Below are positions 23,379 through 39,707 of a stretch of 64,000 nucleotides of DNA, one piece after another. Within the stretch, counting starts at the first letter, position 1, and every line of letters begins with the position of its first letter. The stretch covers positions 839,115 to 903,114 of the forward strand of contig OZ223264.1 of the NCBI GenBank assembly GCA_965140585.1, in the 5' to 3' direction. The notes beneath the pieces were generated by a model. The model was given only the letters and a program-made list of their open reading frames with translations, was not told the origin of the DNA and did no database searches. This DNA is from Spirochaetia bacterium. Lineage in GTDB: Bacteria; Spirochaetota; Spirochaetia; UBA9216. The position numbers and the translations under genes were made by a program.

Positions 23379-23474
23379 TGAATTCTCCTTGATTAATTAA
23401 AACTTATATTAATAGTAATAATAGAGGTGACATCTTGCAACTGAAAAAGTAAATGTATTAACTTTTTACGTTTG

Positions 23475-24086
23475 TTACTCTTTGCCCGCCTTTATTGCGG
23501 CTTCGGCATCCTCAAGGTTTTCATAACCATACATGTTAACGGTATTGAGAAGAAGCTTTGCGGCAAGGTTTTCATTTCTCTTTTCATGATCACGGAGCCA
23601 TTTAAGAATCAGATAAAGTGTTCTCTCAGAGTAGGTTGAAAGCTCACCTTTCAGATATGTCTGCTTTGATGTTACATATTCTGTGTCCTGGCTTCCTCTT
23701 CCCCTTGATGTTATGGCAGGATATTCAGCTTCAAGCTCAGTATCCCATTGCAGGTAAATTGCTGCAATTTCTTCAACTGCCTGTTTTGCCGGATCAGAAA
23801 CTTCAGGAAGACTGCCCTTTATCTGTTCATATTCCGTCGGGAAGGTATATTCCATCATTCTGGCGTATTTCTCGGTCATCAGGTTTCTTTTGGCAGCCTC
23901 TGCTCTTCTGAGATCTTCAAGCCAGCTCTGCAGAATCTCATCATTATAGATCTCAAACTGGCTGATCCTCATTATTTCAAAGGTTTTTCTGTCGTCCTGG
24001 CAGGTTGCTTTTCCTCCCTGGTTATTCACAGCTGTAAACATCTCAAACTCAATATCGATTATTTTCTCTATTAATGCAGCATTCAT
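23475..24086 (-). CDS. Hypothetical protein (DUF4125-like by recollection)
   Basis: 203-aa ORF separated by a 10-nt gap from the upstream gene on the same strand. No catalytic motif recognised. Confidence 0.5.
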   Translation of the reverse strand: MNAALIEKIIDIEFEMFTAVNNQGGKATCQDDRKTFEIMRISQFEIYNDEILQSWLEDLRRAEAAKRNLMTEKYARMMEYTFPTEYEQIKGSLPEVSDPAKQAVEEIAAIYLQWDTELEAEYPAITSRGRGSQDTEYVTSKQTYLKGELSTYSERTLYLILKWLRDHEKRNENLAAKLLLNTVNMYGYENLEDAEAAIKAGKE

Positions 24087-24096
24087 ATAAGTTCCT

Positions 24097-25011
24097 CTAA
24101 GGTTCGATTTTTAATATAGCAAGCTCTTTGCTGCTTATTCTATCATGGATATCTGCCAGATGATCAATCAGGAAGTCGCTACCGCCGTCTGAAAGACCCT
24201 GATTTTTAATCTCCTCAATAAGTCTGCTGCTTATTGTTTCGATGATGTCGATAACTTCTTTCTTTTCAAAAAGCTTTATGAACAGCGGTGAAAGCTGTTT
24301 TCCGGCTTCGCCGGTGTCAATGAGTCCCCGGTGGAGCCATTTATAGTACGGCGGATATCTGCGGCCAAGGTGGTAGAGCATTTTCATGGCAGATTCGCCG
24401 AAGCGTGAGAGTGCAAGATTCTGCGCCGGTGTATCACCTCTCCTGAAGGCTCTCAGATAATTGTACTGGCCGGACTGTCCGGCTTTGAATGCATATTGGG
24501 CAATGTGCTTGACTCTCACATCCTCAGGCATGGCTGAAAGATATTCCCGGGCTGCAGAGAATACCCCGGGAGAATCAGAAAATACTTCACCGTTGGTGGA
24601 CGCTGCAAGCATGAAATCGGGAATTCCCCACCAATCAAGCACCGTTTTAGGGAGTCTTTTCATGCCTGTGAACTGCTTAAAGAAAGTGCTGATTTCAAAT
24701 ACGCCGGTGCGGGCAGGTGCGCCTGAAAGGCGTGTTTTAAAGCCCTTCCATGTCTGCGGAAGATTTCCATATGCTTCTCTCAGTTCTGTATTTAGGTTAT
24801 CATCCGCGGCAGACTCAATCCAGATACAGAAACCCGGCCCCCAGTCATGATCCCTTGATATCTCATCGTCATAACCGAAACAGTCCGAGCCTTCTCCGAC
24901 CATACCGAAAGCTGCTTTCTCTTCAATATTTGGAAACTGATTTTTTAAGGCAGGCAGCCCCGCTTCGAGAAAGAATTGCTTGGAGATTTTTAAACCTGAC
25001 ATCTGTAACAA
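24097..25011 (-). CDS. Hypothetical protein (DUF4037-like by recollection)
   Basis: 304 aa. MVGEGSDCFGYDDEISRDHDWGPGF resembles the conserved N-terminal block I associate with DUF4037. Confidence 0.5.
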   Translation of the reverse strand: MLQMSGLKISKQFFLEAGLPALKNQFPNIEEKAAFGMVGEGSDCFGYDDEISRDHDWGPGFCIWIESAADDNLNTELREAYGNLPQTWKGFKTRLSGAPARTGVFEISTFFKQFTGMKRLPKTVLDWWGIPDFMLAASTNGEVFSDSPGVFSAAREYLSAMPEDVRVKHIAQYAFKAGQSGQYNYLRAFRRGDTPAQNLALSRFGESAMKMLYHLGRRYPPYYKWLHRGLIDTGEAGKQLSPLFIKLFEKKEVIDIIETISSRLIEEIKNQGLSDGGSDFLIDHLADIHDRISSKELAILKIEP

Positions 25012-25105
25012 AATATATTTATTTATTATACACCCGGCAACATTAAAGTGAATATTTTGTGTTGAATATGGTAGTATTTATAGTATCAAATATGGAGTAA
25101 AAACA

Positions 25106-26017
25106 GTGGTTGAGGTAAAACAGGTATCAAAAAGTTACGGCAGTCTGAAAGCTGTTGATGAGCTTTCATTTTCAATTCAACCGGGGCAGATTTATGGTTT
25201 ACTTGGTCCCAACGGAGCAGGAAAATCAACAACGATCAGGATGATAATGAATATTATCAGCCCTGATTCGGGTGAGATTCTTTTCGATGGAACCCCCATC
25301 AATGAAGGGGACAAGGATCGTATCGGTTATCTTCCTGAAGAGCGGGGGCTGTATAAAAAGGTTGTTGTTGAGGACCTTCTTCTATATCTGGCAGAGCTGA
25401 AAGGTGCCAGTTTATCTAAGGCCAAAAGCGATATGGTTCCGCTTCTAAAAAGATTCGATCTGCTTGATTGGAAAAATAAGAAGACGGATGAGCTGTCAAA
25501 GGGAATGGCTCAGAAAATTCAGTTTATTTCCACCATCCTTCATGACCCGCAGATTATTGTACTTGATGAACCCTTTTCAGGTCTTGATCCCGTAAGTGCC
25601 GATCAGCTAAGTGCTCTTATTGCAGAGCTGAGGGACAGGGGCAAAACTATAATTTTCAGTACCCACGTTATGAGTCATGCCGAACAGATATGCAACCGAA
25701 TCTGCATTATGAAAAAAGGAAAAGTTAAAACATCGGGTTCACTGTCTGAGGTTAAAAAACAGTTCGGGCGGAATACAGTAAGAATAGATTTTGAAGGCAG
25801 TGCAGCCTTTGTGAAAGAGCTGCCCTTTGTCAAGGATATAAACCTCTGGCCAGGCTCATGCGAGGTTGAGCTGATTGAAGATGATAATGCCTCGGATAAA
25901 CTTTTCAGTGCTGTAGCCGGAAAGCTTAAGGTTGCGAGGTTCAAACTTCAGGCCCCAAGCCTGCATAAGATATTTGTTGATCTTGCAGGAGACGGAGATG
26001 AATATGAAAAACAGTAA
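25106..26017 (+). CDS. ABC transporter ATP-binding protein (ABC-2 / NatA-like exporter)
   Basis: Walker A GPNGAGKST, signature LSKGMAQK, Walker B IIVLDEPFSGLD. GTG start with a GGAG RBS. Confidence 0.9.
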   Translation: MVEVKQVSKSYGSLKAVDELSFSIQPGQIYGLLGPNGAGKSTTIRMIMNIISPDSGEILFDGTPINEGDKDRIGYLPEERGLYKKVVVEDLLLYLAELKGASLSKAKSDMVPLLKRFDLLDWKNKKTDELSKGMAQKIQFISTILHDPQIIVLDEPFSGLDPVSADQLSALIAELRDRGKTIIFSTHVMSHAEQICNRICIMKKGKVKTSGSLSEVKKQFGRNTVRIDFEGSAAFVKELPFVKDINLWPGSCEVELIEDDNASDKLFSAVAGKLKVARFKLQAPSLHKIFVDLAGDGDEYEKQ

Positions 26018-27236
26018 ATTATTAACAATGATTAAATTCAATTACCGGCGTACCGCAATGAAGAAGAGCTTTATTGTCATTACAATTATAGGGCCGGTTC
26101 TGATACTTGCAATGACGGTTCTTCCAAGCATTCTGACCGAGAAGAGCCTTGACAGTTTCAGCGGTGCAGAAGTTGAAATCTACGGGGGAAATCCGGTTGT
26201 GGTTGAAGCAATAATGGCCTCAAGTTCCGAGATTCTGACCCTGTCAAAAACAGAGGATCTTGAATCATCCAGGCAGAGAGCAGCAGAGAACGGGATTGAC
26301 GGACTGCTTATTCTGCCTGAGGACCCGCTTAATTCAAATGAGCTTGTATTCTATACATCAAATGCCAGTGATATCATGCTTACCGAGACTGTGCGGAATG
26401 TTGTTGGACAGATTGTCACCTCAATGCGGATAAGCGGAGAAGGGCTTGATCCGGTAAAAGTTGCCTCACTTACAGCAAAACCGCGGCTTGATGTTATTCA
26501 GCTTAAAAAGGGCGGAGAGGAAAAAGAAGCTCAGGATTTTACATCTTTTATATACTCCGCAATTGCATTTATCATGCTTCTGTATATGACAACCCTTCTT
26601 TACAGCCAGATGATCGGCCGTGAAGTAGTAGGAGAGAAAACCAGCAAAACAGTAGAGGTTATGCTTTCTTCAGTTAAACCTGTCACACTGATGCTTGGAA
26701 AGATTCTGGGACTCGGTCTTGCGGGGATTTCACAGTATGTGGTTTGGATAGCTGCGTCGCTCCTGCTTATTAAGGTTGTGGGTCCGGTTTTTAACTTATC
26801 TATGCCTTCGGTCTTTTCAGTTGATATGCTTGGCTACCTTGTTCTGTTCTTTCTGCTTGCCTTCTTTCTCTACTCATGTCTCTATGCCGCAACCGGAGCG
26901 CTGGCGGAGGATGAGCAGAGTATGGGCCAGCTGCAGATGCCTATGCTTATTCCGCTTATTCTTCCGATGGTTATGATTTCATACTTCGTAATGAATCCCG
27001 ATTCCGGTATTTCACTGTTTTTCTCTCTCTTTCCGCTGACATCTCCAATGGTTATGTTTGTAAGACTGATGGTAGGGCAGCCTCCGGTCTGGCAGGTTCT
27101 GCTGTGTGTAGTGATTCTGATAGTTTCTATTGCAGGTGTTGCAATAGCTTCAGGAAAGATTTTCAGGCAGGCCATACTGATGACCGGAAAAGCAAAATCG
27201 CTGAAAGACGGTTTTAAGATGGTGATTGCAAAGTAG
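25998..27236 (+). CDS. ABC-2 type transporter permease (NatB-like)
   Basis: One N-terminal TM segment, a large loop and a C-terminal bundle of about 5 TM segments. ATG 25998 overlaps the ATPase stop; the ORF is open from 25932. Confidence 0.75.
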   Translation: MNMKNSKLLTMIKFNYRRTAMKKSFIVITIIGPVLILAMTVLPSILTEKSLDSFSGAEVEIYGGNPVVVEAIMASSSEILTLSKTEDLESSRQRAAENGIDGLLILPEDPLNSNELVFYTSNASDIMLTETVRNVVGQIVTSMRISGEGLDPVKVASLTAKPRLDVIQLKKGGEEKEAQDFTSFIYSAIAFIMLLYMTTLLYSQMIGREVVGEKTSKTVEVMLSSVKPVTLMLGKILGLGLAGISQYVVWIAASLLLIKVVGPVFNLSMPSVFSVDMLGYLVLFFLLAFFLYSCLYAATGALAEDEQSMGQLQMPMLIPLILPMVMISYFVMNPDSGISLFFSLFPLTSPMVMFVRLMVGQPPVWQVLLCVVILIVSIAGVAIASGKIFRQAILMTGKAKSLKDGFKMVIAK

Positions 27237-27258
27237 TTAACTTAAAATCCAAATTAAG

Positions 27259-27286
27259 GGAGGCTGAAATATTCAGCCTCCTTTTT
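27259..27286 (+). terminator. Rho-independent terminator
   Basis: GGAGGCTGAA-ata-TTCAGCCTCC perfect 10-bp stem followed by TTTTT. Confidence 0.85.
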
Positions 27287-27502
27287 ATTTAATTAAAGTA
27301 ATTTATCAGTGTATTAAAAAATAGATTTGCAACTGCTGAGAGTTGTCATACAATATCTATATTTTTTGCTGTACGCCTGCCTGGACATGCTATTTTGATT
27401 TTAACCGCTAATATATGAAAAACATATTTCGAAAATGAGTCAATAATGGTGAAATAAGATGGGTTTTAGTCTAAATAATGATAAAAAAACCTTAAAAAAT
27501 GA

Positions 27503-27569
27503 AATGGCTATTGCGAAATTAGAAAACTCGTGTTTTAATATTAATAAATAGGAATGGCCATTTCGAAAT
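27503..27569. promoter_or_regulatory. Repeated 17-nt operator-like motif upstream of lyase copy 1
   Basis: AATGGCTATTGCGAAAT (27503-27519) and AATGGCCATTTCGAAAT (27553-27569), 50 bp apart. The second contains the 10-bp palindrome ATTTCGAAAT. A related TTTCGAAA lies at 27427-27434. Confidence 0.45.
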
Positions 27570-28500
27570 ACTAAGGAGTGAATATCGTGACAAAGAAAAA
27601 GCCAGAAGGCATTTTTATCCCAATGGTGACTCCATTCAATGCATCTGATGAATCAATAGATTTTTCAGGTCTGAAGGAAGTGACTGAGTTTCTTGTAAAA
27701 AACGGAGTCGACGGGGTAATCCCCTCCGGAAGTACCGGCGAGTTTGTCGCAATGACAAAAGAAGAGCAGATGAAGGTCAATGCAGCGGTATGTGAATATG
27801 CAGCCGGAAGGATGAAGGTGTTCTGTTCAACAGGCGCTTACCGGACTGCTGATACAATTGAAATGTCACAGAGTGCAGAAGCTGCCGGAGCGGATGGAGT
27901 AATGATAGTAACACCATGGTACATGGCGCCTAACGAGGAAGAGCTTTATGACCACTACAAAGCGATCAGGAAATCGATATCGATACCGGTAATGGTCTAT
28001 CATAATCCGTACTATTCAACCTGTCTGATGACAGACGAGTTTATGGCCCGACTTTATAACGACGGATTGATTGATGCAGTGAAGGAAAGACAGGCTGATG
28101 TCTACAGACAGCAGGATCTGAGAGCCTTGACCGATGACGGCTTCGGCATATTTTACGGATATGACATCTGTCCGGTAGAGAGTGTTTCGATGTGGGCCGA
28201 CGGCTGGGTATGCGGAACAGGAAACCTGTTTCCGAAAGAAAACAAGACTGTCTATGATCTTGCAAAGTCAAGGCAGATAGAAGAAGCCCAGAAATATCAT
28301 TTTGAGAAAATTAGGCCGTATCTTCCCCTGTTTACTGAAAGTACATCAAAGGGACTGCCTTGTCCGTGGTTATCAGTGATAAAGGAAGGCCTTAAGCTTA
28401 GGGGCGTTAATGCGGGAGTTGCAAGGAAACCTGTAATGGAGCTTCCGGATGACGTGATGGTTAAACTGAAAAAAGTTTTAAAGGAATACGGGCATCTTTA
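27545..28500 (+). repeat. 956-bp direct repeat, copy 1 (identical to 33964-34919)
   Basis: Every line I compared matched base for base at an offset of 6419. The sense ORF and two antisense ORF translations are also identical. Identity starts 42 nt upstream of the start codon and ends inside the stop codon. Confidence 0.9.
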
Positions 28501-28501
28501 G
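27587..28501 (+). CDS. DHDPS/N-acetylneuraminate-lyase family class I aldolase/lyase, copy 1
   Basis: PSGSTGEF, VYHNPYY and AVKERQAD (Schiff-base Lys region). AAGGAG RBS 8 nt upstream of GTG 27587; the ORF opens at GTG 27578. Confidence 0.85.
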   Translation: MTKKKPEGIFIPMVTPFNASDESIDFSGLKEVTEFLVKNGVDGVIPSGSTGEFVAMTKEEQMKVNAAVCEYAAGRMKVFCSTGAYRTADTIEMSQSAEAAGADGVMIVTPWYMAPNEEELYDHYKAIRKSISIPVMVYHNPYYSTCLMTDEFMARLYNDGLIDAVKERQADVYRQQDLRALTDDGFGIFYGYDICPVESVSMWADGWVCGTGNLFPKENKTVYDLAKSRQIEEAQKYHFEKIRPYLPLFTESTSKGLPCPWLSVIKEGLKLRGVNAGVARKPVMELPDDVMVKLKKVLKEYGHL

Positions 28502-28524
28502 AAGCAAATTAATATAAGGGGTGT

Positions 28525-29871
28525 ATGATGAAACTGAAAAAGGTAGATGTTTTGGTCGCAGGTGGAGGTACTGCTGGTGCTATCGCCGGTATAGCCGCTG
28601 CCAGAAATGGGGCGAATACCTTGATTGTAGACAGGCAAAGATGTCTGGGTGGACAGTTTACTGCAGGAATGCAGGGCGCCTGGGTAGGATTTAGTGATAA
28701 AGAAAAGCTGATTGTCAAAGGAATTGCGTGGGAAATAAGAAATATTCTCAAGGACAAAAACGCAATAGTTGAAGATGATCCTGACACCGATGTCTGTTTT
28801 CTGTATGACACAGAGGTTGCTAAAGTAGTTCTGGATGAGATGGCTTACAGAGAACCGAATCTAAGCACTTATCTTAATGCTTCTATTCTGGATGTTGTTA
28901 TGGATGGTGATCGAGTAGCCGGCCTGATTGTTCTTTCAGAAATGGAACAGATGGAAATCCGGGCAGATGTTGTAATTGACTGCACTGGAGATGCTGCGGT
29001 TTCTGCGGAGGCTGATGTTCCATTTGAAATAAGACCTAAAAAAGATATACAGCCTATGACACTTATTGGGAAAATGGGCGGTGTGGATATGGATCGTGTT
29101 AAGCAGTATTACCGTGAAAACCCTCCTGTTCACGATGCTTCTGAACCGCCGGCCTGGCATGATTTCAAGACTTTTCCCGGATTCATGCATTTCGGACTGA
29201 AGGATGAACTTGAAAATGTAGAACTTCCGCCTGAACTTGAATACCTGCGTAACTGGCTTGCCATTTTTACATCTACACCAAATCCTGATGAGGTAACGAT
29301 TAACTGTTCCGGAGCTATCGAGGCACATAGTACTGCCGGATTTGAAGACCGGGCAGCCCAGGAATATATTTCACAGAAATGCCTGTATGATGTAGCTGAA
29401 GCCCTTAGGTTATATGTTCCCGGTTTTGAAAAATCATACATCTCTTCAATCGCGGGATTACTGGGAATCCGGGAAAGCCGGCGAATTATAGGTGATTACA
29501 AGGTAACCCTAGATGATTTTCTTGCAGCAAAAGAATTCCCTGACAGTATAGGAAGAGGTGCGATGCCGGCTGGAGCGCATACTGCCGATGGTGTGACAAT
29601 GAATGTATATGATTTGGCACCGGGGAGTTCGATGACTATTCCCTACAGCTGTATGATCCCAAAAGGAAAAGATGGACTTCTTGTTGCAGGACGCTGTGTT
29701 TCATATGAGGCACCAGTCGCTAACTGCATAAGGTGTATGCCTCAGTGCATGGTTATGGGAGAAGCCGCAGGGACCGCGGCTGCCATTGCAGTTAAAAACG
29801 GCACCACACCAAGAAATGTTGATATAAAACTGCTGCAGGAAACATTGATAAAGCAGCAGGTGATTATTTGA
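28525..29871 (+). CDS. FAD-dependent oxidoreductase (FAD_oxidored-type, substrate unknown)
   Basis: 448 aa. VDVLVAGGGTAGAIAGIAAARNGANTLIVDR dinucleotide-binding motif and VIDCTGDAAV. Confidence 0.75.
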   Translation: MMKLKKVDVLVAGGGTAGAIAGIAAARNGANTLIVDRQRCLGGQFTAGMQGAWVGFSDKEKLIVKGIAWEIRNILKDKNAIVEDDPDTDVCFLYDTEVAKVVLDEMAYREPNLSTYLNASILDVVMDGDRVAGLIVLSEMEQMEIRADVVIDCTGDAAVSAEADVPFEIRPKKDIQPMTLIGKMGGVDMDRVKQYYRENPPVHDASEPPAWHDFKTFPGFMHFGLKDELENVELPPELEYLRNWLAIFTSTPNPDEVTINCSGAIEAHSTAGFEDRAAQEYISQKCLYDVAEALRLYVPGFEKSYISSIAGLLGIRESRRIIGDYKVTLDDFLAAKEFPDSIGRGAMPAGAHTADGVTMNVYDLAPGSSMTIPYSCMIPKGKDGLLVAGRCVSYEAPVANCIRCMPQCMVMGEAAGTAAAIAVKNGTTPRNVDIKLLQETLIKQQVII

Positions 29872-29903
29872 TTGAGGTGTGAATTAGATTAGGAGGAACT
29901 ATC

Positions 29904-31241
29904 ATGAAGAATAAAGTGGTTTTTATACTGATTATAGCATTGGTATTAACAACAGTATCGGTATTTGCTGGCGGAAAGCAGGAAATTGAGGAAACTGAAA
30001 AACTAATAATATGGACAAACCTCACTGCTGAAGCTCAAACTGTAGTTTTAACAAAACAATTTAATGAAATCGCAGAAGAGATGGGTATAGATATTGAAAT
30101 GGTTACAGTCTCTTTCGGTGATATGTATACAAAGCTTGCAACTGCAATGCAGTCCGGTGATGTTCCTGATATCATGCATACCAATGAAGGCGGCGTTGCA
30201 TATCTTTATGCCAATGATATGCTGACGCCAATGAATGATGTAATTAAAAATATAGGTAAGGATGATTTTGTTAAATCCTACCTGGATATACTTACAGTTG
30301 ATGGTACCATTTGGGGAGTTCCTGACTGGGCATTACATACCTCTGTCTGGTATAGAAAAGATCTGTTTAAAGAGTATGGTTTAAGCATTCCACGTAATTG
30401 GGATGAATTGATGAAGACTGCAAAGTCATTGAATATTGATAGTGATTCAGATGGTAATATTGATACCTATGGTTTTGCCGTATCAATGTCGGCGGTAAAT
30501 GTTGCTGCGCAGGTTTATTATGAATTTCTGTATTCAGCAGGTGTTTATACATTTGACCCTGTAACCGGTGAATATATTTTTGGAAATAATAAAAAGAAAG
30601 CTACAGAGGTTCTTCAGTATATGATCGACCTCTATCATGCTGCTTCACCACCTTCGAGTATTGAATGGGCATGGAGTGAATTCAGAAATGCGCTTGTAGA
30701 GGGTAATGTTGCAATGACTCAGGATATGGGTGCGGTAATTCTCATGGCGCAGAATAATAATCCTGAATTGGTAGGTAATTTAGGATGTTTTGATTTACCA
30801 GGTATTAATGGTGATAAAAAAGCATCCTTTGGAGGTTCATATAATTTTGTTGCCGGAAACCAGGGCGGCGAGGATAAAGCTGAACTTTCTCAAAAATTTA
30901 TTGAAAAACTCTATACACCTGAACGTGCTGCGGAAAGGGCCCTTTCCCGACCAATGTTTGCATTTCCTTCAATGTATTCTGCTTTCGATCTGTATAAAAA
31001 AGCTGATTCTGTTTCATTGTATCAGGATGAAGTTGATGTAATTTATGATGCATTCCAGAATTCCACATGGTACAGGTACGGCATGGAAGCCGGGTTGAAT
31101 CAGATGGCATCCCAGATTGAGTCTACTACATTTTTTGGAGAAGCTATTCAAAGTGCAGCTCTTGGACAATGGACTGCTGAAAAAGCGGTTGATTATATTG
31201 ATCAGATGCTTCAGGAGCAGCTTGCAGTTATTGGTTATTAA
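29904..31241 (+). CDS. Carbohydrate ABC transporter substrate-binding protein (family 1)
   Basis: 445 aa. N-terminal signal peptide (no lipobox Cys). Typical sugar-SBP length and composition. AGGAGG RBS. Confidence 0.8.
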   Translation: MKNKVVFILIIALVLTTVSVFAGGKQEIEETEKLIIWTNLTAEAQTVVLTKQFNEIAEEMGIDIEMVTVSFGDMYTKLATAMQSGDVPDIMHTNEGGVAYLYANDMLTPMNDVIKNIGKDDFVKSYLDILTVDGTIWGVPDWALHTSVWYRKDLFKEYGLSIPRNWDELMKTAKSLNIDSDSDGNIDTYGFAVSMSAVNVAAQVYYEFLYSAGVYTFDPVTGEYIFGNNKKKATEVLQYMIDLYHAASPPSSIEWAWSEFRNALVEGNVAMTQDMGAVILMAQNNNPELVGNLGCFDLPGINGDKKASFGGSYNFVAGNQGGEDKAELSQKFIEKLYTPERAAERALSRPMFAFPSMYSAFDLYKKADSVSLYQDEVDVIYDAFQNSTWYRYGMEAGLNQMASQIESTTFFGEAIQSAALGQWTAEKAVDYIDQMLQEQLAVIGY

Positions 31242-31378
31242 GTCCGTACCGGGCTGATTTAACCATCAGCTGAAGTGATTCTGTATATGCATGGCGGCAT
31301 TATCGGGTTCATTTGCACATGTTGGATGAATCCGGATAATGCTGTTGTAGTCATAACAGGTTTTGAAGGGAGAGCGAT

Positions 31379-32317
31379 ATGGCAACAGGTGAGATGTCTT
31401 ATTTAATAAAGTCATCAAAACAGAAAATTTCAATTAGAATGAATTTCTATAAAAGAAGACAGTTACTTGGGATTTTATTTATTCTGCCCACAATCTTATT
31501 TTTGGCTGTATTTATTTTATATCCGGTGCTGAGTAATTTAGCCCTCAGTTTTACCGATGCATACCTGATTAAAAAAAACTATAATTTTATTGGATTAAAA
31601 AATTACATAAGTCTTATTACAAACCCCATGTTCCTGAAATATTCATGGAATACATTGTTATGGACTTTCTTCTCGGTTGTCGGTCAACTGGTACTTGGTC
31701 TTGGACTTGCTCTTCTGATTAATCAGAAGCTAAGCGGCGGTCCATTTATAAGAGGATTTCTTTTAATTCCTTATGTAGTTCCGGCTGTAGCTCTTGCCCT
31801 GATAACAAAATGGATTTTCAATGGAGATTACGGAATTGCGAGTAAATGGCTGCAGAGTCTGGGGGTTATTGACTATAAACAGTCTCCGCTTGCTCTTCCT
31901 GGCGGAGCAATGGCTGTAATTGTGATTGTGAATATTTGGCGGTCATATCCTTTTCCAATGCTTATATACTGGGCTGCTTTAAAAGGGATAGATAAAGAGC
32001 TTTATGAAGCCGCAGATGTAGACGGCGCAAACAGATTTCAATCATTCTGGTATATTACGCTCCCTCAACTTAAGAATACGACAATAGTGCTTGCTATTCT
32101 CCGTATAGTCTGGACGGCAACGTATTTTGATTTAATATGGATGGTTACGGGCGGAGGTCCTGCAGGAACAACAACCCATCTTCCGATTATGATTTATCAA
32201 TCCTCATTCGGAACTTTCAGGATCGGCTATGCCTCTGCTATATCCATGATGCTCGGCATTGTGCTGTTTGTCTGTATCATCTACTACGTAAGAAAATCCG
32301 GAGATTTTGCGGATTGA
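31379..32317 (+). CDS. Carbohydrate ABC transporter permease (MalF/UgpA-like)
   Basis: Six TM segments. EAA loop LYEAADVDGANRFQSFWYITLP. The start may be the internal ATG at 31439. Confidence 0.85.
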   Translation: MATGEMSYLIKSSKQKISIRMNFYKRRQLLGILFILPTILFLAVFILYPVLSNLALSFTDAYLIKKNYNFIGLKNYISLITNPMFLKYSWNTLLWTFFSVVGQLVLGLGLALLINQKLSGGPFIRGFLLIPYVVPAVALALITKWIFNGDYGIASKWLQSLGVIDYKQSPLALPGGAMAVIVIVNIWRSYPFPMLIYWAALKGIDKELYEAADVDGANRFQSFWYITLPQLKNTTIVLAILRIVWTATYFDLIWMVTGGGPAGTTTHLPIMIYQSSFGTFRIGYASAISMMLGIVLFVCIIYYVRKSGDFAD

Positions 32318-33179
32318 GGAAAATAAAATGAATTCTACAATTAAATTAGAGAATCAGAATCTGCTGCGCAAGTGTATCCTGGGTGCTGTATCGGCATTCT
32401 TTATATGTGTGGTAGGATTCCCCTTATTATGGATGGTTTTAAGTTCATTAAAGCCGGCCACAGAGCTGTTTAAATCTCCTCCTACAATCTTTCCGGAAAC
32501 GATCACTTTTGAATGGTACCGAAGTGCATTCAGTGATAAAACCGTAGTGAGATATTTTGTAAACAGTTTTATTGTTGCAACCGGTACAACAGCAATAGTG
32601 ATTATAATGGCAACATTCGGAGCTTATGGATTAACCAGGTTTCGATTTTTCGGCAGAAAGGCAATAACTGTAGCTGTGCTTTCCGCTTATTGTATTCCTC
32701 CTATAATGCTGATGATTCCATTATACCGGATTATTGCAAAGATGCATCTGAATGCATCACTGTTTGGTGTTATTATTGGTCACTCAACTGTTACATTTCC
32801 ATTTGCTGTCTGGCTTCTTATTTCCTTTTTCAGGAGTATTCCGCGGGACATAGAAGAAGCTGCACTTGTGAATGGTGCTTCGGATTTGACCATTTTTTTT
32901 AGAATAATTTTACCTCTATGTGTGCCTGGTATTCTTAGTACCGGGATTCTTGTGTTTATACTCTCATGGAATGAATACCTGCTTGCAAGCGTATTGATTT
33001 CCCAGGATTCCATGAAGACTCTGACTGTAGGAATTGCCAACTATATCAGTTCAACAGAAATAAACTGGGGTGTGATAATGGCTCTAGGTACTGCAACTAC
33101 GGTTCCCATTGTTTTAATGTTTACAGCCATTCAGAAATATTTTGTTGAAGGCCTTACTGCAGGGGCTGTAAAAGGGTAA
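32307..33179 (+). CDS. Carbohydrate ABC transporter permease (MalG/UgpE-like)
   Basis: EAA loop IEEAALVNGASDLTIFFRIILP. The start is probably ATG 32328. Confidence 0.85.
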   Translation: MRIEENKMNSTIKLENQNLLRKCILGAVSAFFICVVGFPLLWMVLSSLKPATELFKSPPTIFPETITFEWYRSAFSDKTVVRYFVNSFIVATGTTAIVIIMATFGAYGLTRFRFFGRKAITVAVLSAYCIPPIMLMIPLYRIIAKMHLNASLFGVIIGHSTVTFPFAVWLLISFFRSIPRDIEEAALVNGASDLTIFFRIILPLCVPGILSTGILVFILSWNEYLLASVLISQDSMKTLTVGIANYISSTEINWGVIMALGTATTVPIVLMFTAIQKYFVEGLTAGAVKG

Positions 33180-33191
33180 GCGGGTAGAGTA

Positions 33192-33842
33192 ATGAATATT
33201 TATTCGATTGAAAGTGATGAATTTGCCGTTTATGGTGAAATCCTTGAAGGCATAGACACAAGTGAGTTGTGTTTGGTGATGAAGGAAATAAAAATGCCTG
33301 ATAGGGGAGTATTATATCGCCCCGAGGTGAATGAGCTTGAATCCTGCGCAGTTTTCAATGATTTTCGTGATCTTTTTTTTGGGGGGCTTGAAATCCAAAT
33401 TGGTATGTGCTGGGGCTATAATTCAGTATTGAATTGTCTGGAATATCATCGCAGCAGTGAGATCATTGTAGGTTCCGATGATTTTATTCTCCTGCTTGCA
33501 AGACGTGATGAGCTGGCAGCTAATTCACTGAATACCTCCAAAGTAAAAGGATTCCTGGTTCCTTCAGGTTCTGCTGTTGAGCTGTACTCTTCTACCCTCC
33601 ATTATGCGCCCTGTCATTCTGTTGCTATGCAAGGATTCAGGACTGCTGTTATCCTTCCAAAAGGAACGAATACTGTGCAGCCGTCTTTCAGCCCTGATAG
33701 TATCGGTCAATTCCATCCGTCTGCCATAAATAAGTGGGTGCTGGCACATCCGGAATCTCCGGAGGCTTCTGGTGGTGCAATAATTGGTCTTTTAGGAAAA
33801 AATATTGATATTGGATGCAATAGTCTTGTATATGTGGAATAG
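33192..33842 (+). CDS. Hypothetical protein (DUF4867-like / ureidoglycolate-lyase-fold by recollection)
   Basis: 216-aa ORF separated by a 12-nt gap from the permease stop. No motif that I can assign with certainty. Confidence 0.45.
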   Translation: MNIYSIESDEFAVYGEILEGIDTSELCLVMKEIKMPDRGVLYRPEVNELESCAVFNDFRDLFFGGLEIQIGMCWGYNSVLNCLEYHRSSEIIVGSDDFILLLARRDELAANSLNTSKVKGFLVPSGSAVELYSSTLHYAPCHSVAMQGFRTAVILPKGTNTVQPSFSPDSIGQFHPSAINKWVLAHPESPEASGGAIIGLLGKNIDIGCNSLVYVE

Positions 33843-33922
33843 GCATTCCGTATAATGAAGGTGAAATTGCATTTTTATGTTTCTTTTTTCAAAAATGTAA
33901 TAAATATACTCTCAAAAAACGA

Positions 33923-33988
33923 AATGGGCATTGTAAAAAGTAAAGAGTTGTGTTTAAATTATCTAAATAGGAATGGCCATTTCGAAAT
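33923..33988. promoter_or_regulatory. Operator-like motif pair upstream of lyase copy 2
   Basis: Degenerate AATGGGCATTGTAAAAA (33923-33939) and exact AATGGCCATTTCGAAAT (33972-33988). Confidence 0.4.
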
Positions 33989-34919
33989 ACTAAGGAGTGA
34001 ATATCGTGACAAAGAAAAAGCCAGAAGGCATTTTTATCCCAATGGTGACTCCATTCAATGCATCTGATGAATCAATAGATTTTTCAGGTCTGAAGGAAGT
34101 GACTGAGTTTCTTGTAAAAAACGGAGTCGACGGGGTAATCCCCTCCGGAAGTACCGGCGAGTTTGTCGCAATGACAAAAGAAGAGCAGATGAAGGTCAAT
34201 GCAGCGGTATGTGAATATGCAGCCGGAAGGATGAAGGTGTTCTGTTCAACAGGCGCTTACCGGACTGCTGATACAATTGAAATGTCACAGAGTGCAGAAG
34301 CTGCCGGAGCGGATGGAGTAATGATAGTAACACCATGGTACATGGCGCCTAACGAGGAAGAGCTTTATGACCACTACAAAGCGATCAGGAAATCGATATC
34401 GATACCGGTAATGGTCTATCATAATCCGTACTATTCAACCTGTCTGATGACAGACGAGTTTATGGCCCGACTTTATAACGACGGATTGATTGATGCAGTG
34501 AAGGAAAGACAGGCTGATGTCTACAGACAGCAGGATCTGAGAGCCTTGACCGATGACGGCTTCGGCATATTTTACGGATATGACATCTGTCCGGTAGAGA
34601 GTGTTTCGATGTGGGCCGACGGCTGGGTATGCGGAACAGGAAACCTGTTTCCGAAAGAAAACAAGACTGTCTATGATCTTGCAAAGTCAAGGCAGATAGA
34701 AGAAGCCCAGAAATATCATTTTGAGAAAATTAGGCCGTATCTTCCCCTGTTTACTGAAAGTACATCAAAGGGACTGCCTTGTCCGTGGTTATCAGTGATA
34801 AAGGAAGGCCTTAAGCTTAGGGGCGTTAATGCGGGAGTTGCAAGGAAACCTGTAATGGAGCTTCCGGATGACGTGATGGTTAAACTGAAAAAAGTTTTAA
34901 AGGAATACGGGCATCTTTA
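33964..34919 (+). repeat. 956-bp direct repeat, copy 2
   Basis: See copy 1. The offset is exactly 6419 bp. Confidence 0.9.
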
Positions 34920-34920
34920 A
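34006..34920 (+). CDS. DHDPS/N-acetylneuraminate-lyase family class I aldolase/lyase, copy 2
   Basis: Protein identical to copy 1. Only the stop codon differs (TAA versus TAG). Confidence 0.85.
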   Translation: MTKKKPEGIFIPMVTPFNASDESIDFSGLKEVTEFLVKNGVDGVIPSGSTGEFVAMTKEEQMKVNAAVCEYAAGRMKVFCSTGAYRTADTIEMSQSAEAAGADGVMIVTPWYMAPNEEELYDHYKAIRKSISIPVMVYHNPYYSTCLMTDEFMARLYNDGLIDAVKERQADVYRQQDLRALTDDGFGIFYGYDICPVESVSMWADGWVCGTGNLFPKENKTVYDLAKSRQIEEAQKYHFEKIRPYLPLFTESTSKGLPCPWLSVIKEGLKLRGVNAGVARKPVMELPDDVMVKLKKVLKEYGHL

Positions 34921-34937
34921 TGTTTTAAATACGGAGT

Positions 34938-34973
34938 GGGAAAGGTTCGGACAGACTGAACCTCTCACTTTTT
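34938..34973 (+). terminator. Rho-independent terminator
   Basis: GGGAAAGGTTC...GAACCTCTC imperfect stem followed by a T-run (34969-34973). Confidence 0.65.
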
Positions 34974-35073
34974 CTAATTCTGATTAAAACTGTTAATATA
35001 CTGTTGGTTATTGACTAGCTATGTTAATATGAATTAGAAATAGAAAAGGGTATTTCATATTTATTATGTATAA

Positions 35074-35859
35074 ATGGAGGATTCATTTTTGGAAGAGAAA
35101 TCAAAAGAAAATGTCAAAGCATTGGAAAAGGCTCTTATTATTTTGGAAATGATAAAGGAATCAAAAATTCCTCTGGGAGTAAATGAAATATCCAGACAAT
35201 GCAAGATAAATCTGACGACAGCTTTCAGGATCCTTCAAACATTTAAAAGTAAGGGGTGGGTCTATCAGAATTCAGAAGATAAGTACATTATCGGGATGAA
35301 AGTTTCATTTGTTACTGATAGAAACAATTTCTACCTTGCTCTTAAAGAAATAGCATATTACACAATGGCAAGATTAAGTGCAAAAGTATCTCAAGCCATG
35401 AATTTGATAGTGAGAGAGAATGAAAAGTGCTTTATTCTGCAGCAGTCCCGGACGGATAAAATTGTAGATTATGTTCCTCCTATAGGTACAGTTCTTCCTA
35501 TCTATGCCAGTGCCGGCGGAAAAGTACTGCTGGCTGAACTTCCGGAAATGCTTCTTGAAGAGATTCTGGATATGCTTGATTTTAAACCGCTTACGAAATA
35601 CACAATTATCAGGCGATCAGTTTTTCTTGAAGAGCTTCAGAAAGTTAAAACACTTGGCTATGCAATTGATGAGCATGAATCCCAGGAGGAAGGGTTTTGT
35701 CTTGCTGTTCCGGTAAGAAACCGGGAGAATGAAATAATAGCAGCTTTATCTTTTTCCGGATTTATTGGAACCTTGAATGAAACAGAAATAAAGGATTGCT
35801 ATTTAACTCTTAAAGAAGCTTCCGAAGAGATAACAGGAAATCTTTACAAGTACCAGTAA
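35074..35859 (+). CDS. IclR family transcriptional regulator
   Basis: 261 aa. N-terminal winged HTH (LEKALIILEMIKESKIPLGVNEISRQCKINLTTAFRILQTF) and a C-terminal IclR effector domain. Confidence 0.85.
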   Translation: MEDSFLEEKSKENVKALEKALIILEMIKESKIPLGVNEISRQCKINLTTAFRILQTFKSKGWVYQNSEDKYIIGMKVSFVTDRNNFYLALKEIAYYTMARLSAKVSQAMNLIVRENEKCFILQQSRTDKIVDYVPPIGTVLPIYASAGGKVLLAELPEMLLEEILDMLDFKPLTKYTIIRRSVFLEELQKVKTLGYAIDEHESQEEGFCLAVPVRNRENEIIAALSFSGFIGTLNETEIKDCYLTLKEASEEITGNLYKYQ

Positions 35860-35958
35860 TTTAAAACCGGTGTATTCATTTTGCTTCAGTCAGAAGCTTC
35901 TGCATACCAGTCCACTTAAAACAATCAGCCCCTTCTGTTATAGTAGGAGAGGTTTTTT

Positions 35959-36879
35959 ATGAGATACACAGTAATAGGCACCGGAGCAATAGGCTCCTAC
36001 TACGGCGGACGCTTACAGCAGTCCGGATTAATGGTTAATTACCTGGCCAGAAGTGACTATGAACATCTTAAGAGTTCAGGCATGGTCATTGAGTCAATAA
36101 ACGGTGATTTTAAATTAGAAGATATAGCAGCTTTTAAGAAGGCTGAAGATATTCCTGAAACCGACGTTGTCCTGGTTTCTTTGAAAACAACAGCAAATTC
36201 AAAGCTTCCTGATCTGATAAGGCCGCTGGTACACCGCGGTACAGTTATTCTTGTGCTTCAAAATGGTCTTGATATGGAAGAGGAGCTTCGGACGGCCTTT
36301 CCAGAGGCCAGGGTTATGGGCGGAATGTGTTTTATATGTTCATTCAGGAAGGCTCCTGGGCATATTATGCATGTTGATAAGGGCTCAATACTGGCTGCAC
36401 CTCTGGATCCTGCTGACCTGCCGATTCTGAAACAGATTGAGACTGATTTTATTGCAGCCGGAATTGAGTTTAAAAGCAGTGAAGATCTGAGAACCTCCCG
36501 ATGGAGTAAACTGCTTTGGAATATTCCGTTTAACGGGCTTTCCGTTATTCTGAATGCCACTACAAGCGATATTCTTTCCAGCCGTCAGGGCGAAACAATA
36601 GTTAGAAAGCTAATGTCGGAGGTTGTTCAGGGTGCCAGGGCTGACGGCTGCAGTTTGAATGAAAGCCAGATTGAGCCGATGATTGATTTTACAAGGGTAA
36701 TGACTCCGTATAAGCCGAGTATGAAACTTGATTTTGAATCAGGGAGACCGATGGAAATTGATTACATGTTCCGGAAACCGCTTAAGGCTGCAGAAAAAAA
36801 AGGTATTGAGCTGCCGTCTATTACAATGATTGCGGATCAGCTTGAAATTCTGGAAGGGCTAAATAATCAAGATTGCTGA
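35959..36879 (+). CDS. panE: 2-dehydropantoate 2-reductase family (ApbA/PanE) oxidoreductase
   Basis: 306 aa. N-terminal IGTGAIGSYYGGRL Rossmann motif, LKTTA motif and C-terminal ApbA_C-like region. Confidence 0.75.
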   Translation: MRYTVIGTGAIGSYYGGRLQQSGLMVNYLARSDYEHLKSSGMVIESINGDFKLEDIAAFKKAEDIPETDVVLVSLKTTANSKLPDLIRPLVHRGTVILVLQNGLDMEEELRTAFPEARVMGGMCFICSFRKAPGHIMHVDKGSILAAPLDPADLPILKQIETDFIAAGIEFKSSEDLRTSRWSKLLWNIPFNGLSVILNATTSDILSSRQGETIVRKLMSEVVQGARADGCSLNESQIEPMIDFTRVMTPYKPSMKLDFESGRPMEIDYMFRKPLKAAEKKGIELPSITMIADQLEILEGLNNQDC

Positions 36880-36908: not shown

Positions 36909-36989
36909 ATGGTGAGTGAAAAGAGCAGTCCCGCACCCTTTGTTAAATGGGAAGGCGGAAAGCGGCAGCTGTATAAAGAGCTACCTTAA
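36909..36989 (+). pseudogene. 26-codon N-terminal fragment of a Dam-type methyltransferase
   Basis: Translates to MVSEKSSPAPFVKWEGGKRQLYKELP then a stop. PFVKWEGGKRQL is the N-terminal Dam-family signature. It lies in a different frame from the intact gene 32 nt downstream, which has its own VVKWVGGKRQL. Confidence 0.6.
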
Positions 36990-37020
36990 TTTTTTTTACG
37001 ATATAGAGTACTATTTCACG

Positions 37021-37863
37021 GTGACATATAAAAGAAACAGACTTGTTGCTCCGGTTGTGAAATGGGTCGGTGGAAAACGTCAGTTAATTTCAGAAATTTC
37101 TAAGTATTACCCAAAATTCTCTGGAACATATTTCGAACCATTTTTAGGTGGTGCGGCTGTTTTATTCCATTTCCAGCCAAAAGTAGCTATCGTTAATGAT
37201 AATAATGCAGAATTAGTGAACTTATACAATGTAATAAAGAATAATCCGGAACTCTTGATATCGGATCTGAAGAAGCACATCAATGATAAAGAGTATTTTT
37301 ATGAGATTAGATCACTTGATCGGGATAAAGAAAAGTATGGTCGGCTGACCCCAATTGAGAGAGCCTCCAGAATATTATTCCTTAATAAAACATGTTATAA
37401 CGGTCTTTTTCGGGTAAATAGTTCAGGTGAGTTTAATACGCCTTTTGGAAGATATAAAAATCCGAATATCGTAAATGAAATAACCATTAATGCTGTTAGT
37501 AGATATTTCAATAGTGTGGAAATCTCTATTCTAAATGTAGATTTTGAAAATGCGGTTAAGAATGCAAAAAAAGGGGATTTTGTATATTTTGATCCACCAT
37601 ACGACCCCATTTCTGATAGTTCAAATTTCACTGGTTACACAAAAATTGGATTTGATAGAGCAGAACAACTAAGGTTGAAATACCTGTGTGATGACTTAAA
37701 AAAAAGAGATGTGAAATTTTTGTTATCCAATTCAGCCACAGATTTTATATGGGAACTTTATAAAGACTATAGTAGAACGAAGATAACTGCTACACGTGCT
37801 ATCAATTCAAAAGCTGAAGGCAGAGGTGTTGTTGAAGAGGTTCTTGTGAAAAATTATGACTAA
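37021..37863 (+). CDS. Dam-like (alpha-class) N6-adenine DNA methyltransferase
   Basis: VKWVGGKRQL, FEPFLGGAAV (FxGxG) and FVYFDPPY (DPPY). GTG 37021 gives the typical 280 aa; the ORF is open from 36916. AT-rich gene. Confidence 0.85.
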   Translation: MTYKRNRLVAPVVKWVGGKRQLISEISKYYPKFSGTYFEPFLGGAAVLFHFQPKVAIVNDNNAELVNLYNVIKNNPELLISDLKKHINDKEYFYEIRSLDRDKEKYGRLTPIERASRILFLNKTCYNGLFRVNSSGEFNTPFGRYKNPNIVNEITINAVSRYFNSVEISILNVDFENAVKNAKKGDFVYFDPPYDPISDSSNFTGYTKIGFDRAEQLRLKYLCDDLKKRDVKFLLSNSATDFIWELYKDYSRTKITATRAINSKAEGRGVVEEVLVKNYD

Positions 37864-37885: not shown

Positions 37886-38086
37886 GTGTGGATTAAGATT
37901 TTCGATAAATACAGTATAAATAAAAGATTTAAAGAAGATGGACACTATTTTATTTCAGCTGATCAGATAAATCAGTATAGGGAAGCACGCTTGATGACAA
38001 AATTTGATCATTATAGAAACCTTCCAAATCTTTTAAAAGAGTAAAAAGTTAATATTTTACCGATTTCAAGAGGTTTTTATATAATA
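37886..38086 (+). pseudogene. Fragment of a probable restriction endonuclease gene (nonsense codon, then cut by the IS)
   Basis: GTG-initiated frame MWIKIFDKYS...REARLMTKFDHYRNLPNLLKE, an in-frame TAA (38042-38044), then KVNILPISRGFYII running into the IS5 end at 38087. The RLMTKFD...LP...ILPISRG.Y pattern resembles type II REase N-termini as I recall them. Confidence 0.45.
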
Positions 38087-39277
38087 GGCGCTTCTAAAAA
38101 CTAAAGGAAATTCAATGAATTCAAAAATCTGATATGCTTTTACTTTTGGATGAATAAATGTCAAAGCAGAAAGGTTTTTTCATAGAAGATTTAAAGCTAT
38201 CAGAATTATCACAGCACGGAGATCCCTTGCAGAGATTGAGTGCAATGATTCCATGGGAAAACTTTCGGCATAAATTAAATCGTATCTTTGTAAAAGAAGC
38301 AAAAGGCCCTGGAGGAATACCTCCATACGATTATGTGATGATGTTTAAAATCCTCGTATTACAGAGAATTTATAATCTATCCGATTCGCAAATGCAGTAC
38401 CAGATCATGGATCGATTATCATTTATGAGATTTCTTGGTTTGAATCTTGATGACAAAGTACCCGATGAAAAAACAATCTGGCACTTTAGAGAAGAACTTG
38501 TTGAATCAAGGAAACTTGAAATACTATTTGAACAGTTCAGGAATTATCTGATAAAAGAAGGAATACTGCTTGAGTCGGGGACAATTGTCGATGCTTCTTT
38601 TGTTGAAGTACCAAAACAAAGAAATAATAAAGACGAAAATAAAGAGATAAAAGAGGGCGAAACTCCTAAAGAGTGGTCAGACAATAAATTAAGACAAAAA
38701 GATGTGGATGCAAGATGGGTAACAAAAGGCGGGCAACGCCATTATGGCTACAAAAATCACATAAAAATTTATCGTAAATCCAAGCTTATTAACAATTATG
38801 TAGTAACCAGTGCTGCAGTTCATGACTCGCAAGTAATAGAAGAAATTTTAGAAGAATCTGATTCGCATCATGAATTATATGCTGATAGTGCTTATAGCGG
38901 AGCTCCAATAAAAGAAATATTGTCGGAATTGAAAATCAGGAACCGGATACATGAAAAAGGCTATCGAAATAGCCCGTTAACTAAGAAACAAAAAGAGCGG
39001 AATCGAAAAAAGTCGAAGACGCGGGCGAGAGTAGAACATGTATATGGATTTATGGTTAATTCGATGCAAGGTGATTTTATCAGGTACATAGGTCAGAAAA
39101 GAGCTGAAGCAGTGATAGGATTAAGTAACCTTGTTTATAATATGATGAGGTATATCCAGATATGTTCTGCATGAGCTGGGTAGATTGATGGATGAGGAAT
39201 GTATCGACATGCCGGTACAATGATAAAAAAGCTGATGATGTTTAATACAGCATAGCTGAAGGTTTTTAGAGGCGCCC
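38087..39277 (+). mobile_element. IS5-family insertion sequence, copy B
   Basis: 1191 bp, same orientation as copy A. Right IR GTTTTTAGAGGCGCCC (39262-39277); left IR is degenerate (GGCGCTTCTAAAAAC). Flanks are ATA and TTA, so there is no clean target duplication. Confidence 0.85.
38158..39174 (+). CDS. IS5-family DDE transposase
   Basis: 338 aa, with 8 substitutions relative to copy A. Confidence 0.9.
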   Translation: MSKQKGFFIEDLKLSELSQHGDPLQRLSAMIPWENFRHKLNRIFVKEAKGPGGIPPYDYVMMFKILVLQRIYNLSDSQMQYQIMDRLSFMRFLGLNLDDKVPDEKTIWHFREELVESRKLEILFEQFRNYLIKEGILLESGTIVDASFVEVPKQRNNKDENKEIKEGETPKEWSDNKLRQKDVDARWVTKGGQRHYGYKNHIKIYRKSKLINNYVVTSAAVHDSQVIEEILEESDSHHELYADSAYSGAPIKEILSELKIRNRIHEKGYRNSPLTKKQKERNRKKSKTRARVEHVYGFMVNSMQGDFIRYIGQKRAEAVIGLSNLVYNMMRYIQICSA

Positions 39278-39707
39278 TTAAGAAAAAGCCAATTCTTTAT
39301 GAATTCAACAACCACTATTACAGAGCCAGCTGATCTAATATGGAAAACTTGCGTCATTCCCATAGGCGAGGTATATCCTCATCTTGATGAAATCCAAAAT
39401 ATTTCATTTTTGACTTAGAAAAAGCTGATTATCAGATATCAACACCGGTCCAAAACTGTAGGAAGCACCATAAAGAGGCTTCATGATCGAGCTAATTTAA
39501 CTTTCGCATATTAAATTGTCAGTAAGGGATGCCAAAGATATTAAATGTATTAATGTGCACAAAGTACATTTCTTGCACAGGATAATGTGCGCTTCTTATA
39601 AAGCTTAAAAAGCAGATACAGTTTTTTATTCTGAATAATTAAAAAGCGTGTTAGGCTAATTACGGTTTTAAATTTTGTTGGATAAATATAAAACAGGAGC
39701 AAGAATA

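Follow-up and report, generated by a model that had tools for sequence, protein, structure and literature searches.

The Ruminococcus gnavus nan cluster for 2,7-anhydro-N-acetylneuraminic acid (2,7-anhydro-Neu5Ac), which is compared below together with Escherichia coli YjhBC, combines a solute-binding protein (SBP) and two permeases with NanOx and NanA, and the Amadori operon frlBONMD of Bacillus subtilis uses a shared ATPase, MsmX. Here, we analyze an island in a 64,000-nucleotide stretch of DNA from a Spirochaetia bacterium (assembly GCA_965140585.1, contig OZ223264.1, positions 839,115 to 903,114 of the forward strand), hereafter referred to as the window, which encodes a CUT1-type importer, a flavoenzyme of family PF12831 and a Schiff-base lyase of the DHDPS family under an IclR-type regulator. 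A first-pass annotation, made from the letters alone, had described these genes as an uncharacterized module that matches no named pathway. This description is supported by the present analysis, since no orthology of the whole cluster to a characterized operon was found when databases and literature were searched; no operon of this composition has been described in that literature, where only papers on DUF4867 and on one xanthan-utilization locus are relevant. At its core, the island carries a six-gene unit that is conserved in at least 45 species. We consider it somewhat more probable than not (about 0.55) that the island is catabolic, and that a carboxylated sugar derivative is imported, converted by the flavoenzyme and cleaved to pyruvate by the lyase, under control of IclR.

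A conserved six-gene unit on an acquired island

All genes of the annotated string are present on the + strand, as judged from the open reading frames (ORFs) and family profiles. The string begins with a DHDPS-family lyase (27587-28501, with the ORF open from 27578; PF00701, 203 bits), for which the GTG at 27587 is probably the true start, positioned 8 nt after an AGGAG sequence, while a start at the upstream GTG (27578) would overlap with the ribosome-binding site. It is followed by the flavoenzyme (28525-29871; PF12831 FAD_oxidored, 343.6 bits, cut-off 27), an SBP_bac_1 protein with a signal peptide that lacks Cys (29904-31241), and two CUT1-type permeases with BPD_transp_1 domains, the first UgpA/MalF/GlcT-like (31379-32317) and the second MalG/GlcU/UgpE-like (32307-33179). 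A 216-residue DUF4867 cupin metalloprotein of the SftX/SqvB family (33192-33842; PF16161, 230 bits), a local accessory gene, precedes a second lyase copy with an identical protein sequence (34006-34920, ORF open from 33997), and the string ends with the IclR-family regulator (35074-35859; HTH_IclR 41.5 bits, IclR_C 124.4 bits), which reaches no equivalog cut-off.

In an ortholog scan limited to one genome for each species, 45 loci were obtained besides the window, and the unit shared by these at least 45 species consists of IclR, the lyase, the PF12831 flavoenzyme (68-83% identity to that of the window), the SBP and the two permeases. The carriers belong to Oscillospiraceae, Christensenellaceae, Lachnospiraceae, Butyricicoccaceae, Anaerolineae and Sphaerochaetaceae, with one bin labelled Bacteroidetes, and include Oscillospiraceae metagenome-assembled genomes (MAGs) from human gut, animal gut and rumen as well as Christensenellaceae MAGs. 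The order lyase, flavoenzyme, SBP, permease 1 and permease 2 is kept, with a divergent IclR gene upstream wherever the contig reaches that far; the exceptions are two loci where the flavoenzyme gene follows the permeases, and one where IclR is located downstream, as in the window. The regulator is a core gene; in most genomes it is divergent and upstream of the lyase, not downstream as listed for the window. When all ORFs of the loci are clustered, only the six core genes recur, and DUF4867, the second lyase copy and a PanE gene fall outside the core. Mining of the gene neighborhoods, which had been proposed for both orphan proteins, therefore places the flavoenzyme in a recurring core but not the DUF4867 protein, which had been counted as a member of the module and is found near it in only 2 of 46 loci. 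The flanks vary between genomes and include housekeeping genes, such as those for a penicillin-binding protein, HisS and AspS. Exporter genes adjoin the unit in about 17 of the 45 loci (MatE in 8, TauE in 4, EamA in 3 and Mem_trans in 2), but their families and positions differ, and they were not counted as members. An acid-sugar theme appears in locus L016, the closest relative with context, where an MR_MLE/DGOK/DHDPS operon adjoins the module. In full, this abutting acid-sugar operon (397-6489) comprises cyclase-like, DHDPS, DGOK kinase, 2-hydroxyacid dehydrogenase, iron-containing alcohol dehydrogenase (Fe-ADH) and MR_MLE genes, and a TauE-type exporter is also present.

The importer has the features of a CUT1 system, namely an SBP_bac_1 protein and MalF- and MalG-like permeases, and the nearest solved relative of the SBP is E. 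coli YcjN (PDB code 8VQK), matched at only 1e-17. The island encodes no ABC ATPase. As the first-pass annotation states, none belongs to the gene string; the ABC_tran gene at 25106-26017 is part of an ABC-2 exporter in the native flank. The suggestion that the importer borrows a shared ATPase fits with a MalK/MsmX-type gene (ABC_tran, OB_MalK and TOBE_2 domains; G000:C1:787561-788595), a candidate partner about 51 kb upstream of the window, and with the MalK-type ATPase gene that follows the permeases directly in L016 (15020-16270).

Compared with a genome of the same genus (G001), the region 27241-35914, from lyase copy 1 to IclR, is an insertion of about 8.7 kb, because both of its flanks are contiguous in G001: 22830-27236 (94% identity) and 35915-36869 (93% identity) are located about 45 bp apart there, which constitutes an empty site. 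The 7-bp sequence CTTAAAA is present at both ends of the island (+ strand, 27241-27247 and 35915-35921, the right copy being where homology to G001 resumes) and as a single copy at the empty site. The pair may represent a target-site duplication, microhomology or a chance match; no integrase or transposase gene is present within the island. The GC fraction of the island is 0.404, compared with 0.43 for the flanks, and no ortholog of the flavoenzyme was found among 40 related genomes. Flavoenzyme orthologs in public data are 68-95% identical. Those in Bacillota/Oscillospiraceae MAGs are closer to the window (83% identity) than those in Sphaerochaetaceae, which belong to the phylum of the host (75-76%), which demonstrates transfer between phyla; other Oscillospiraceae show 68-70% identity, and a plasmid collection contains only distant paralogues (at most 34% identity). 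The host itself is identified as a spirochaete by three FlaA sheath proteins, which are encoded by none of 14 control genomes. We conclude that the island is horizontally acquired by the spirochaete.

A PanE/ApbA-like gene (35959-36879) was considered as a module member and rejected, being a native flanking gene that is present in G001. Both a Dam methylase and an insertion sequence (IS) lie outside the island. The Dam-family N6-adenine methyltransferase (36916-37863; TIGR00571, 297 bits) is located between the PanE-like gene and the IS, and is probably a separate acquisition, because the syntenic match to G001 stops at 36869. The 1.2-kb IS is present as two direct copies (18433-19628 and 38085-39282; 96% identical), the only two in the genome, encodes a 338-residue transposase with DDE_Tnp_1 and DUF772 domains, and has terminal inverted repeats of about 17 bp. 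The two copies bracket 18.5 kb of native genes and island, and the IS has no match in G001. Just outside the block shared with G001, a LysR-type ORF of 178 residues (22124-22660) appears truncated, as its substrate-binding domain ends at profile position 100 of 209.

Lyase, flavoenzyme and cupin

The lyase has the Schiff-base lysine, the two catalytic tyrosine residues and the carboxylate-binding motif of the PF00701 superfamily. Lys169, Tyr115 and Tyr141 are invariant in 25 orthologs, as are Gly51, Ser52 and Gly54 in the GSTGE motif (residues 51-55), while Thr53 is present in 24 of them. Tyr146 occupies the position of the residue that contacts aspartate semialdehyde in DapA (Arg138 in E. coli numbering), and tyrosine is present there in 24 of the 25 orthologs. 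An assignment as housekeeping DapA was rejected on the basis of this replacement and of a score of 187.3 bits against the TIGR00674 cut-off of 206.15; the genome has a true DapA gene at another locus (G000:C4:169352-170200, 385 bits). The lyase also falls short of the KdgD cut-offs (111.8 against 278 bits for NF002958, and 100.3 against 374 for TIGR03249) and of those for HpaI-type and archaeal 2-keto-3-deoxygluconate aldolases. None of the lyase, flavoenzyme and SBP reaches an NCBIfam equivalog cut-off.

The GSTGE motif and a YGYD segment of the lyase are NanA-like, and the gene architecture parallels that of the R. gnavus cluster. These similarities would agree with salvage of an ulosonic or nonulosonic acid, such as an anhydro or unsaturated form of Neu5Ac, 2-keto-3-deoxynononic acid (KDN) or 3-deoxy-manno-octulosonic acid (Kdo), where the flavoenzyme would generate the free keto acid, as a functional analogue of NanOx, and the lyase would cleave in the manner of NanA; the fusion of a distant flavoenzyme paralogue (P0243) to a BNR/sialidase-like domain points in the same direction. 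However, the YGYD segment is followed by Val or Ile, at a position that we take to be the sugar-binding Glu in NanA, and the lyase scores far below both NanA cut-offs (138.8 against 281 bits for NF003164, and 114.8 against 382 for TIGR00683). The epimerases NanE (PF04131) and AGE-type (PF07221) were not found in the host genome (G000, 98.5% complete) or in the complete chromosome of carrier G401, carrier G403 gave only a PF04131 match below the cut-off, and NanE/AGE are missing in three of the five carrier genomes tested. In none of the 45 loci is a sialidase, NanK or NanE gene linked to the unit. Canonical sialic-acid catabolism was therefore rejected, on account of the failed NanA cut-offs and the missing NanE/AGE in the host, and we regard salvage of a modified acid of this type as improbable.

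As for the flavoenzyme, the match to PF12831 covers the whole profile (positions 1-416 of 416), and the GxGxxG motif begins at residue 13, which implies a cytoplasmic protein without signal peptide. At 50% identity, PF12831 divides into about 16,000 representative clusters, and no assigned substrate was found for the family. The orthogroup of the window enzyme forms a single cluster in the library of representatives at that level (898 bits), with the next relative at 396 bits. Sequence and profile searches of the PDB gave matches confined to the dinucleotide-binding (FAD-binding) N-terminus, and matches in the ESM Atlas belong to clusters named only as FAD-dependent oxidoreductase. An AlphaFold 2 (AF2) model based on an alignment of 92 sequences (pLDDT 94.9, pTM 0.95) shows a two-domain fold of GR2 type; it replaced an earlier model from 21 near-identical orthologs (pLDDT 69), and both give generic flavoprotein folds. 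Structural comparison with Foldseek and VIA-align likewise identifies only the generic fold, with FixC (Z 22.4) and geranylgeranyl reductase (Z 21.8) as nearest neighbors, followed by a flat tail at Z 17-20 composed of fumarate and urocanate reductases, halogenases and amine oxidases. Side chains conserved throughout the family include Arg316, Glu317, Arg319, His352, Arg390 and Arg403, and the arginine and histidine residues among them suggest, as far as sequence can tell, that the substrate may be anionic.

The structural neighbors also include glycine, sarcosine and opine oxidoreductases, albeit at Z values of about 17, within the generic tail. They bear on the possibility that the flavoenzyme oxidizes a C-N bond in an amino acid that is N-substituted or cyclic, for example one that resembles an opine, an Amadori compound or hydroxyproline, and that the resulting imine or 2-oxo acid is handled by a DHDPS-family deaminase, dehydratase or aldolase. 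An FAD-dependent D-hydroxyproline dehydrogenase and a DHDPS-type pyrroline-hydroxycarboxylate deaminase are a known pair, and clostridial PF12831 paralogues adjoin BCCT, OpuAC and SBP_bac_5 importers and aldehyde dehydrogenase. The importer in the unit is, however, of the CUT1 sugar type, the flavoenzyme belongs to PF12831 and not to the DAO family, and no epimerase or alpha-ketoglutarate semialdehyde (KGSA) dehydrogenase recurs near the unit, for which reasons we regard such a reaction as improbable.

Several distant PF12831 paralogues (P0243 and P0245-P0250) are fused to F5/8-type-C (CBM32-like) modules, one of them with CBM9, and P0243 with its BNR/sialidase-like propeller. These fusions suggest a carbohydrate-active branch of PF12831 with carbohydrate substrates. 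Other distant paralogues adjoin CUT1 importers (Microvirga) or CUT1 importers together with GH130 and esterases (Paenibacillus). A different chemistry can also be considered, in which a lactyl ether (as in N-acetylmuramic acid) or a pyruvyl ketal (as in exopolysaccharides or cell-wall polymers) is removed from the imported sugar: the flavoenzyme would dehydrogenate or activate the substituent, the lyase would take it as pyruvate, and the plain sugar would be set free. A moiety of pyruvate type is common to all reactions of the lyase family, and the combination of only two conserved enzymes with mobility across phyla implies that the products must enter universal metabolism. Furthermore, PF12831 paralogues occur as bare regulator-permease-permease-SBP-FAD units, and the same sub-cluster, with a protein annotated as FAD-dependent oxidoreductase, is found in a xanthan-utilization region, where it adjoins a PL8 lyase that frees pyruvylated mannose (PMC12772297). 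The protein at the xanthan locus is, however, only a putative member of PF12831, and reports of that locus mention no DHDPS gene. Nor is any glycosidase or sugar kinase linked to the unit. Cleavage of an ether or a ketal by an enzyme of the DHDPS family is, to our knowledge, without biochemical precedent, which counts against this chemistry, and we consider it unlikely. The wider proposal, that the conserved pair of this PF12831 flavoenzyme and a lyase of the Tyr146 type constitutes an undescribed route by which anaerobes of gut, rumen and digester strip lactyl ethers or pyruvyl ketals from imported sugars of bacterial cell walls or exopolysaccharides, with pyruvate and an ordinary sugar as products, is likewise unlikely; if true, it would provide the first substrate class for a part of the orphan PF12831 family, and a new type of reaction for the DHDPS family.

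The first-pass annotation had placed both the flavoenzyme and the 216-residue protein in families with essentially no assigned substrates, which holds for the former. DUF4867 (IPR032358) is not wholly uncharacterized, as it includes SftX/SqvB (also written SqvD) of sulfoquinovose clusters, a metalloprotein of known structure (PDB codes 9GYY and 9GYZ) with undetermined biochemical function (PMC11968277). Compared with the SqvB structure 9GYY, the protein in the window gives a match at 1.2e-42 and has all four metal ligands of the 2His-2Glu site (Glu84, His86, Glu90 and His137). Sulfoglycolysis (sulfo-SFT, sulfo-EMP, sulfo-TK or sulfo-ED) was nevertheless rejected: the island lacks a GH31 sulfoquinovosidase, a sulfoquinovose isomerase, an enzyme that cleaves SF or KDSG, and an SLA reductase or dehydrogenase, a TauE-type exporter adjoins the unit in only 4 of the 45 loci, and the sole link is DUF4867, which is not core. 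The genome has no second DUF4867 gene, the nearest homolog shows 69% identity, and a metagenome scan gave no close relatives. Apart from the window, it is found near the module only in locus L042, where the DUF4867 gene follows genes for a DAO/BFD-like flavoprotein, a Pyr_redox_2 protein and DUF1667 (57-3659), a set that resembles anaerobic glycerol-3-phosphate dehydrogenase-like systems. A DUF4867 protein with 51% identity is also encoded by another spirochaete in a same-class sample (locus L093, G200:C25:46000-65000, at about 9200-17100), where it ends an operon for SBP_bac_1, two permeases, GntR, an MR_MLE dehydratase, a DHDPS-family aldolase and Fe-ADH. This operon links the cupin to non-phosphorylative catabolism of acid sugars or deoxy sugars, a type of neighborhood absent from the published DUF4867 network; the published sequence-similarity network mentions no DHDPS or PF12831 neighborhood (PMC11968277).

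Lyase duplication and putative operators

The second lyase gene is an exact duplicate and not a paralogue: the two proteins give identical profile scores and agree in 307 of 307 residues. The copies lie in a 956-bp direct repeat (27545-28500 and 33964-34919, both + strand, 100% identical), which begins 33 nt 5' of the ORF, stops inside the stop codon, and brackets the genes from flavoenzyme to DUF4867. No further copies exist in the genome. On the 5' side of the exact repeat, homology extends for about 70 bp at about 70% identity, and this segment holds a pair of operator-like sites, while the sequences downstream of the two copies differ. Since the promoter region has diverged and the coding part is free of substitutions, the most likely history is an older duplication, followed by recent gene conversion that homogenized the coding part. 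The complete identity and sharp edges of the repeat could also be expected from an assembly artefact, or from a snapshot of tandem amplification instead of a fixed A-B-A arrangement. The contig is continuous through both copies, however, and an artefact would not create the distinct downstream sequences and the merely 70% identical operator regions, which makes this alternative highly improbable. The second copy doubles the lyase dosage and makes a recombination-prone 956-bp repeat, and the exact duplication with diverged operators offers a small natural case of gene conversion and dosage tuning in an operon.

The putative operators before copy 1 are GAAATGGCTATTGCGAAAT (27501-27519) and GGAATGGCCATTTCGAAAT (27551-27569), located 50 bp apart within 27501-27569 on the + strand, and the corresponding pair before copy 2 is found at 33921-33988 (+ strand). 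The 19-mer GGAATGGCCATTTCGAAAT contains a near-perfect palindrome and occurs in the 4.85-Mb genome only before the two lyase copies. Its partner 50 bp upstream of copy 1 has three mismatches, whereas the partner at copy 2, about 49 bp upstream, is more diverged. A weak copy of the motif precedes the IclR gene (35043-35056). The restriction of the 19-mer to promoters of the module implies that the putative regulon is local. At the end of the upstream ABC-2 exporter unit is a strong terminator-like hairpin with a stem of 13 pairs and a run of T behind it (27256-27284, + strand), and a second terminator-like hairpin is located after lyase copy 2 (34943-34963, + strand). With one hairpin before the unit and another after copy 2, the transcription unit both begins and ends with a lyase gene.

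Proposed pathway and relation to known systems

The gene content, its conservation, the boundaries of the island, the duplication, the catalytic residues and the lack of a characterized relative are direct observations, while the nature of the substrate, the order of the steps and the role of the operators are inferred. The observations support a mobile and self-contained unit under IclR, dedicated to a single sugar-derived nutrient, for which the flavoenzyme and the lyase would suffice to reach central metabolism, with pyruvate as the expected product. In the catabolic pathway that we favor, the SBP and permeases would import a sugar derivative that bears, or is able to yield, a carboxylate, energized by a MalK/MsmX-type ATPase encoded elsewhere. 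In the cytoplasm, the flavoenzyme would oxidize or reduce this compound such that a 2-oxo-acid moiety of pyruvate type is formed or exposed, and Lys169 of the lyase would form a Schiff base with this moiety to release pyruvate and a fragment for general metabolism. IclR, acting at the paired operators, would keep the unit repressed as long as neither the substrate nor an intermediate is present. Of the local additions, the DUF4867 cupin probably acts on the sugar part, in a ring or anomeric form, and the second lyase copy would bring its own operator pair.

A number of observations weigh against this pathway. No enzyme in the unit has a characterized ortholog. All hosts appear to be anaerobic, and the unit encodes no electron acceptor or donor partner. 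The direction of the redox step is not fixed, because the nearest folds are mostly those of reductases. PF12831 is not limited to sugars, because some of its distant paralogues adjoin importers of betaine, TRAP or peptide/opine type, among them BCCT, OpuAC and SBP_bac_5. Members of the DHDPS family also act as dehydratases or deaminases, so the release of pyruvate is not assured. Finally, distant loci do not keep the operator 14-mer between their IclR and lyase genes, and their IclR proteins are only about 50% identical. The ligand of the SBP would probably reveal the pathway and name a nutrient of poorly cultured anaerobes. In addition, the module provides a clean entry to PF12831, as the orthogroup is tight, mobile between phyla and always accompanied by one lyase, one importer and one regulator.

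When compared with the known systems, similarities and differences are noted at several levels. As in frlBONMD, a CUT1 importer without an ATPase of its own is combined with cytoplasmic processing of a modified sugar, but the frl operon has a kinase, a deglycase and a regulator of GntR type in place of the flavoenzyme, the Schiff-base lyase and IclR. The SftX/SqvB sulfoquinovose clusters have DUF4867 with its four metal ligands in common with the island, from which the enzymes of sulfoglycolysis are absent. With the R. gnavus nan cluster and E. coli YjhBC, the unit shares the principle that a binding-protein importer of sugar type is combined with a cytoplasmic oxidoreductase, which makes the substrate ready for a lyase of the DHDPS/NAL family. 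However, R. gnavus NanOx is an NAD-dependent enzyme of the Gfo/Idh/MocA type and not a PF12831 flavoprotein, and the lyase of the unit fails the NanA cut-offs, is linked to neither nanE, nanK nor a sialidase gene, and is accompanied by an IclR regulator. The non-phosphorylative acid-sugar operons, exemplified by E. coli yagEF and yjhHG and by the operons in L016 and L093, are similar with respect to the class I aldolase of the DHDPS family, which in those operons releases pyruvate, the IclR or GntR regulator and the importer. They produce the 2-keto-3-deoxy acid by means of a dehydratase of the IlvD/EDD type or of the enolase superfamily, whereas the module has a flavoenzyme and no dehydratase. 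In this comparison, the module is a binding-protein-dependent operon of acid-sugar type that includes a class I aldolase and has an uncharacterized flavoenzyme where a dehydratase is usual.

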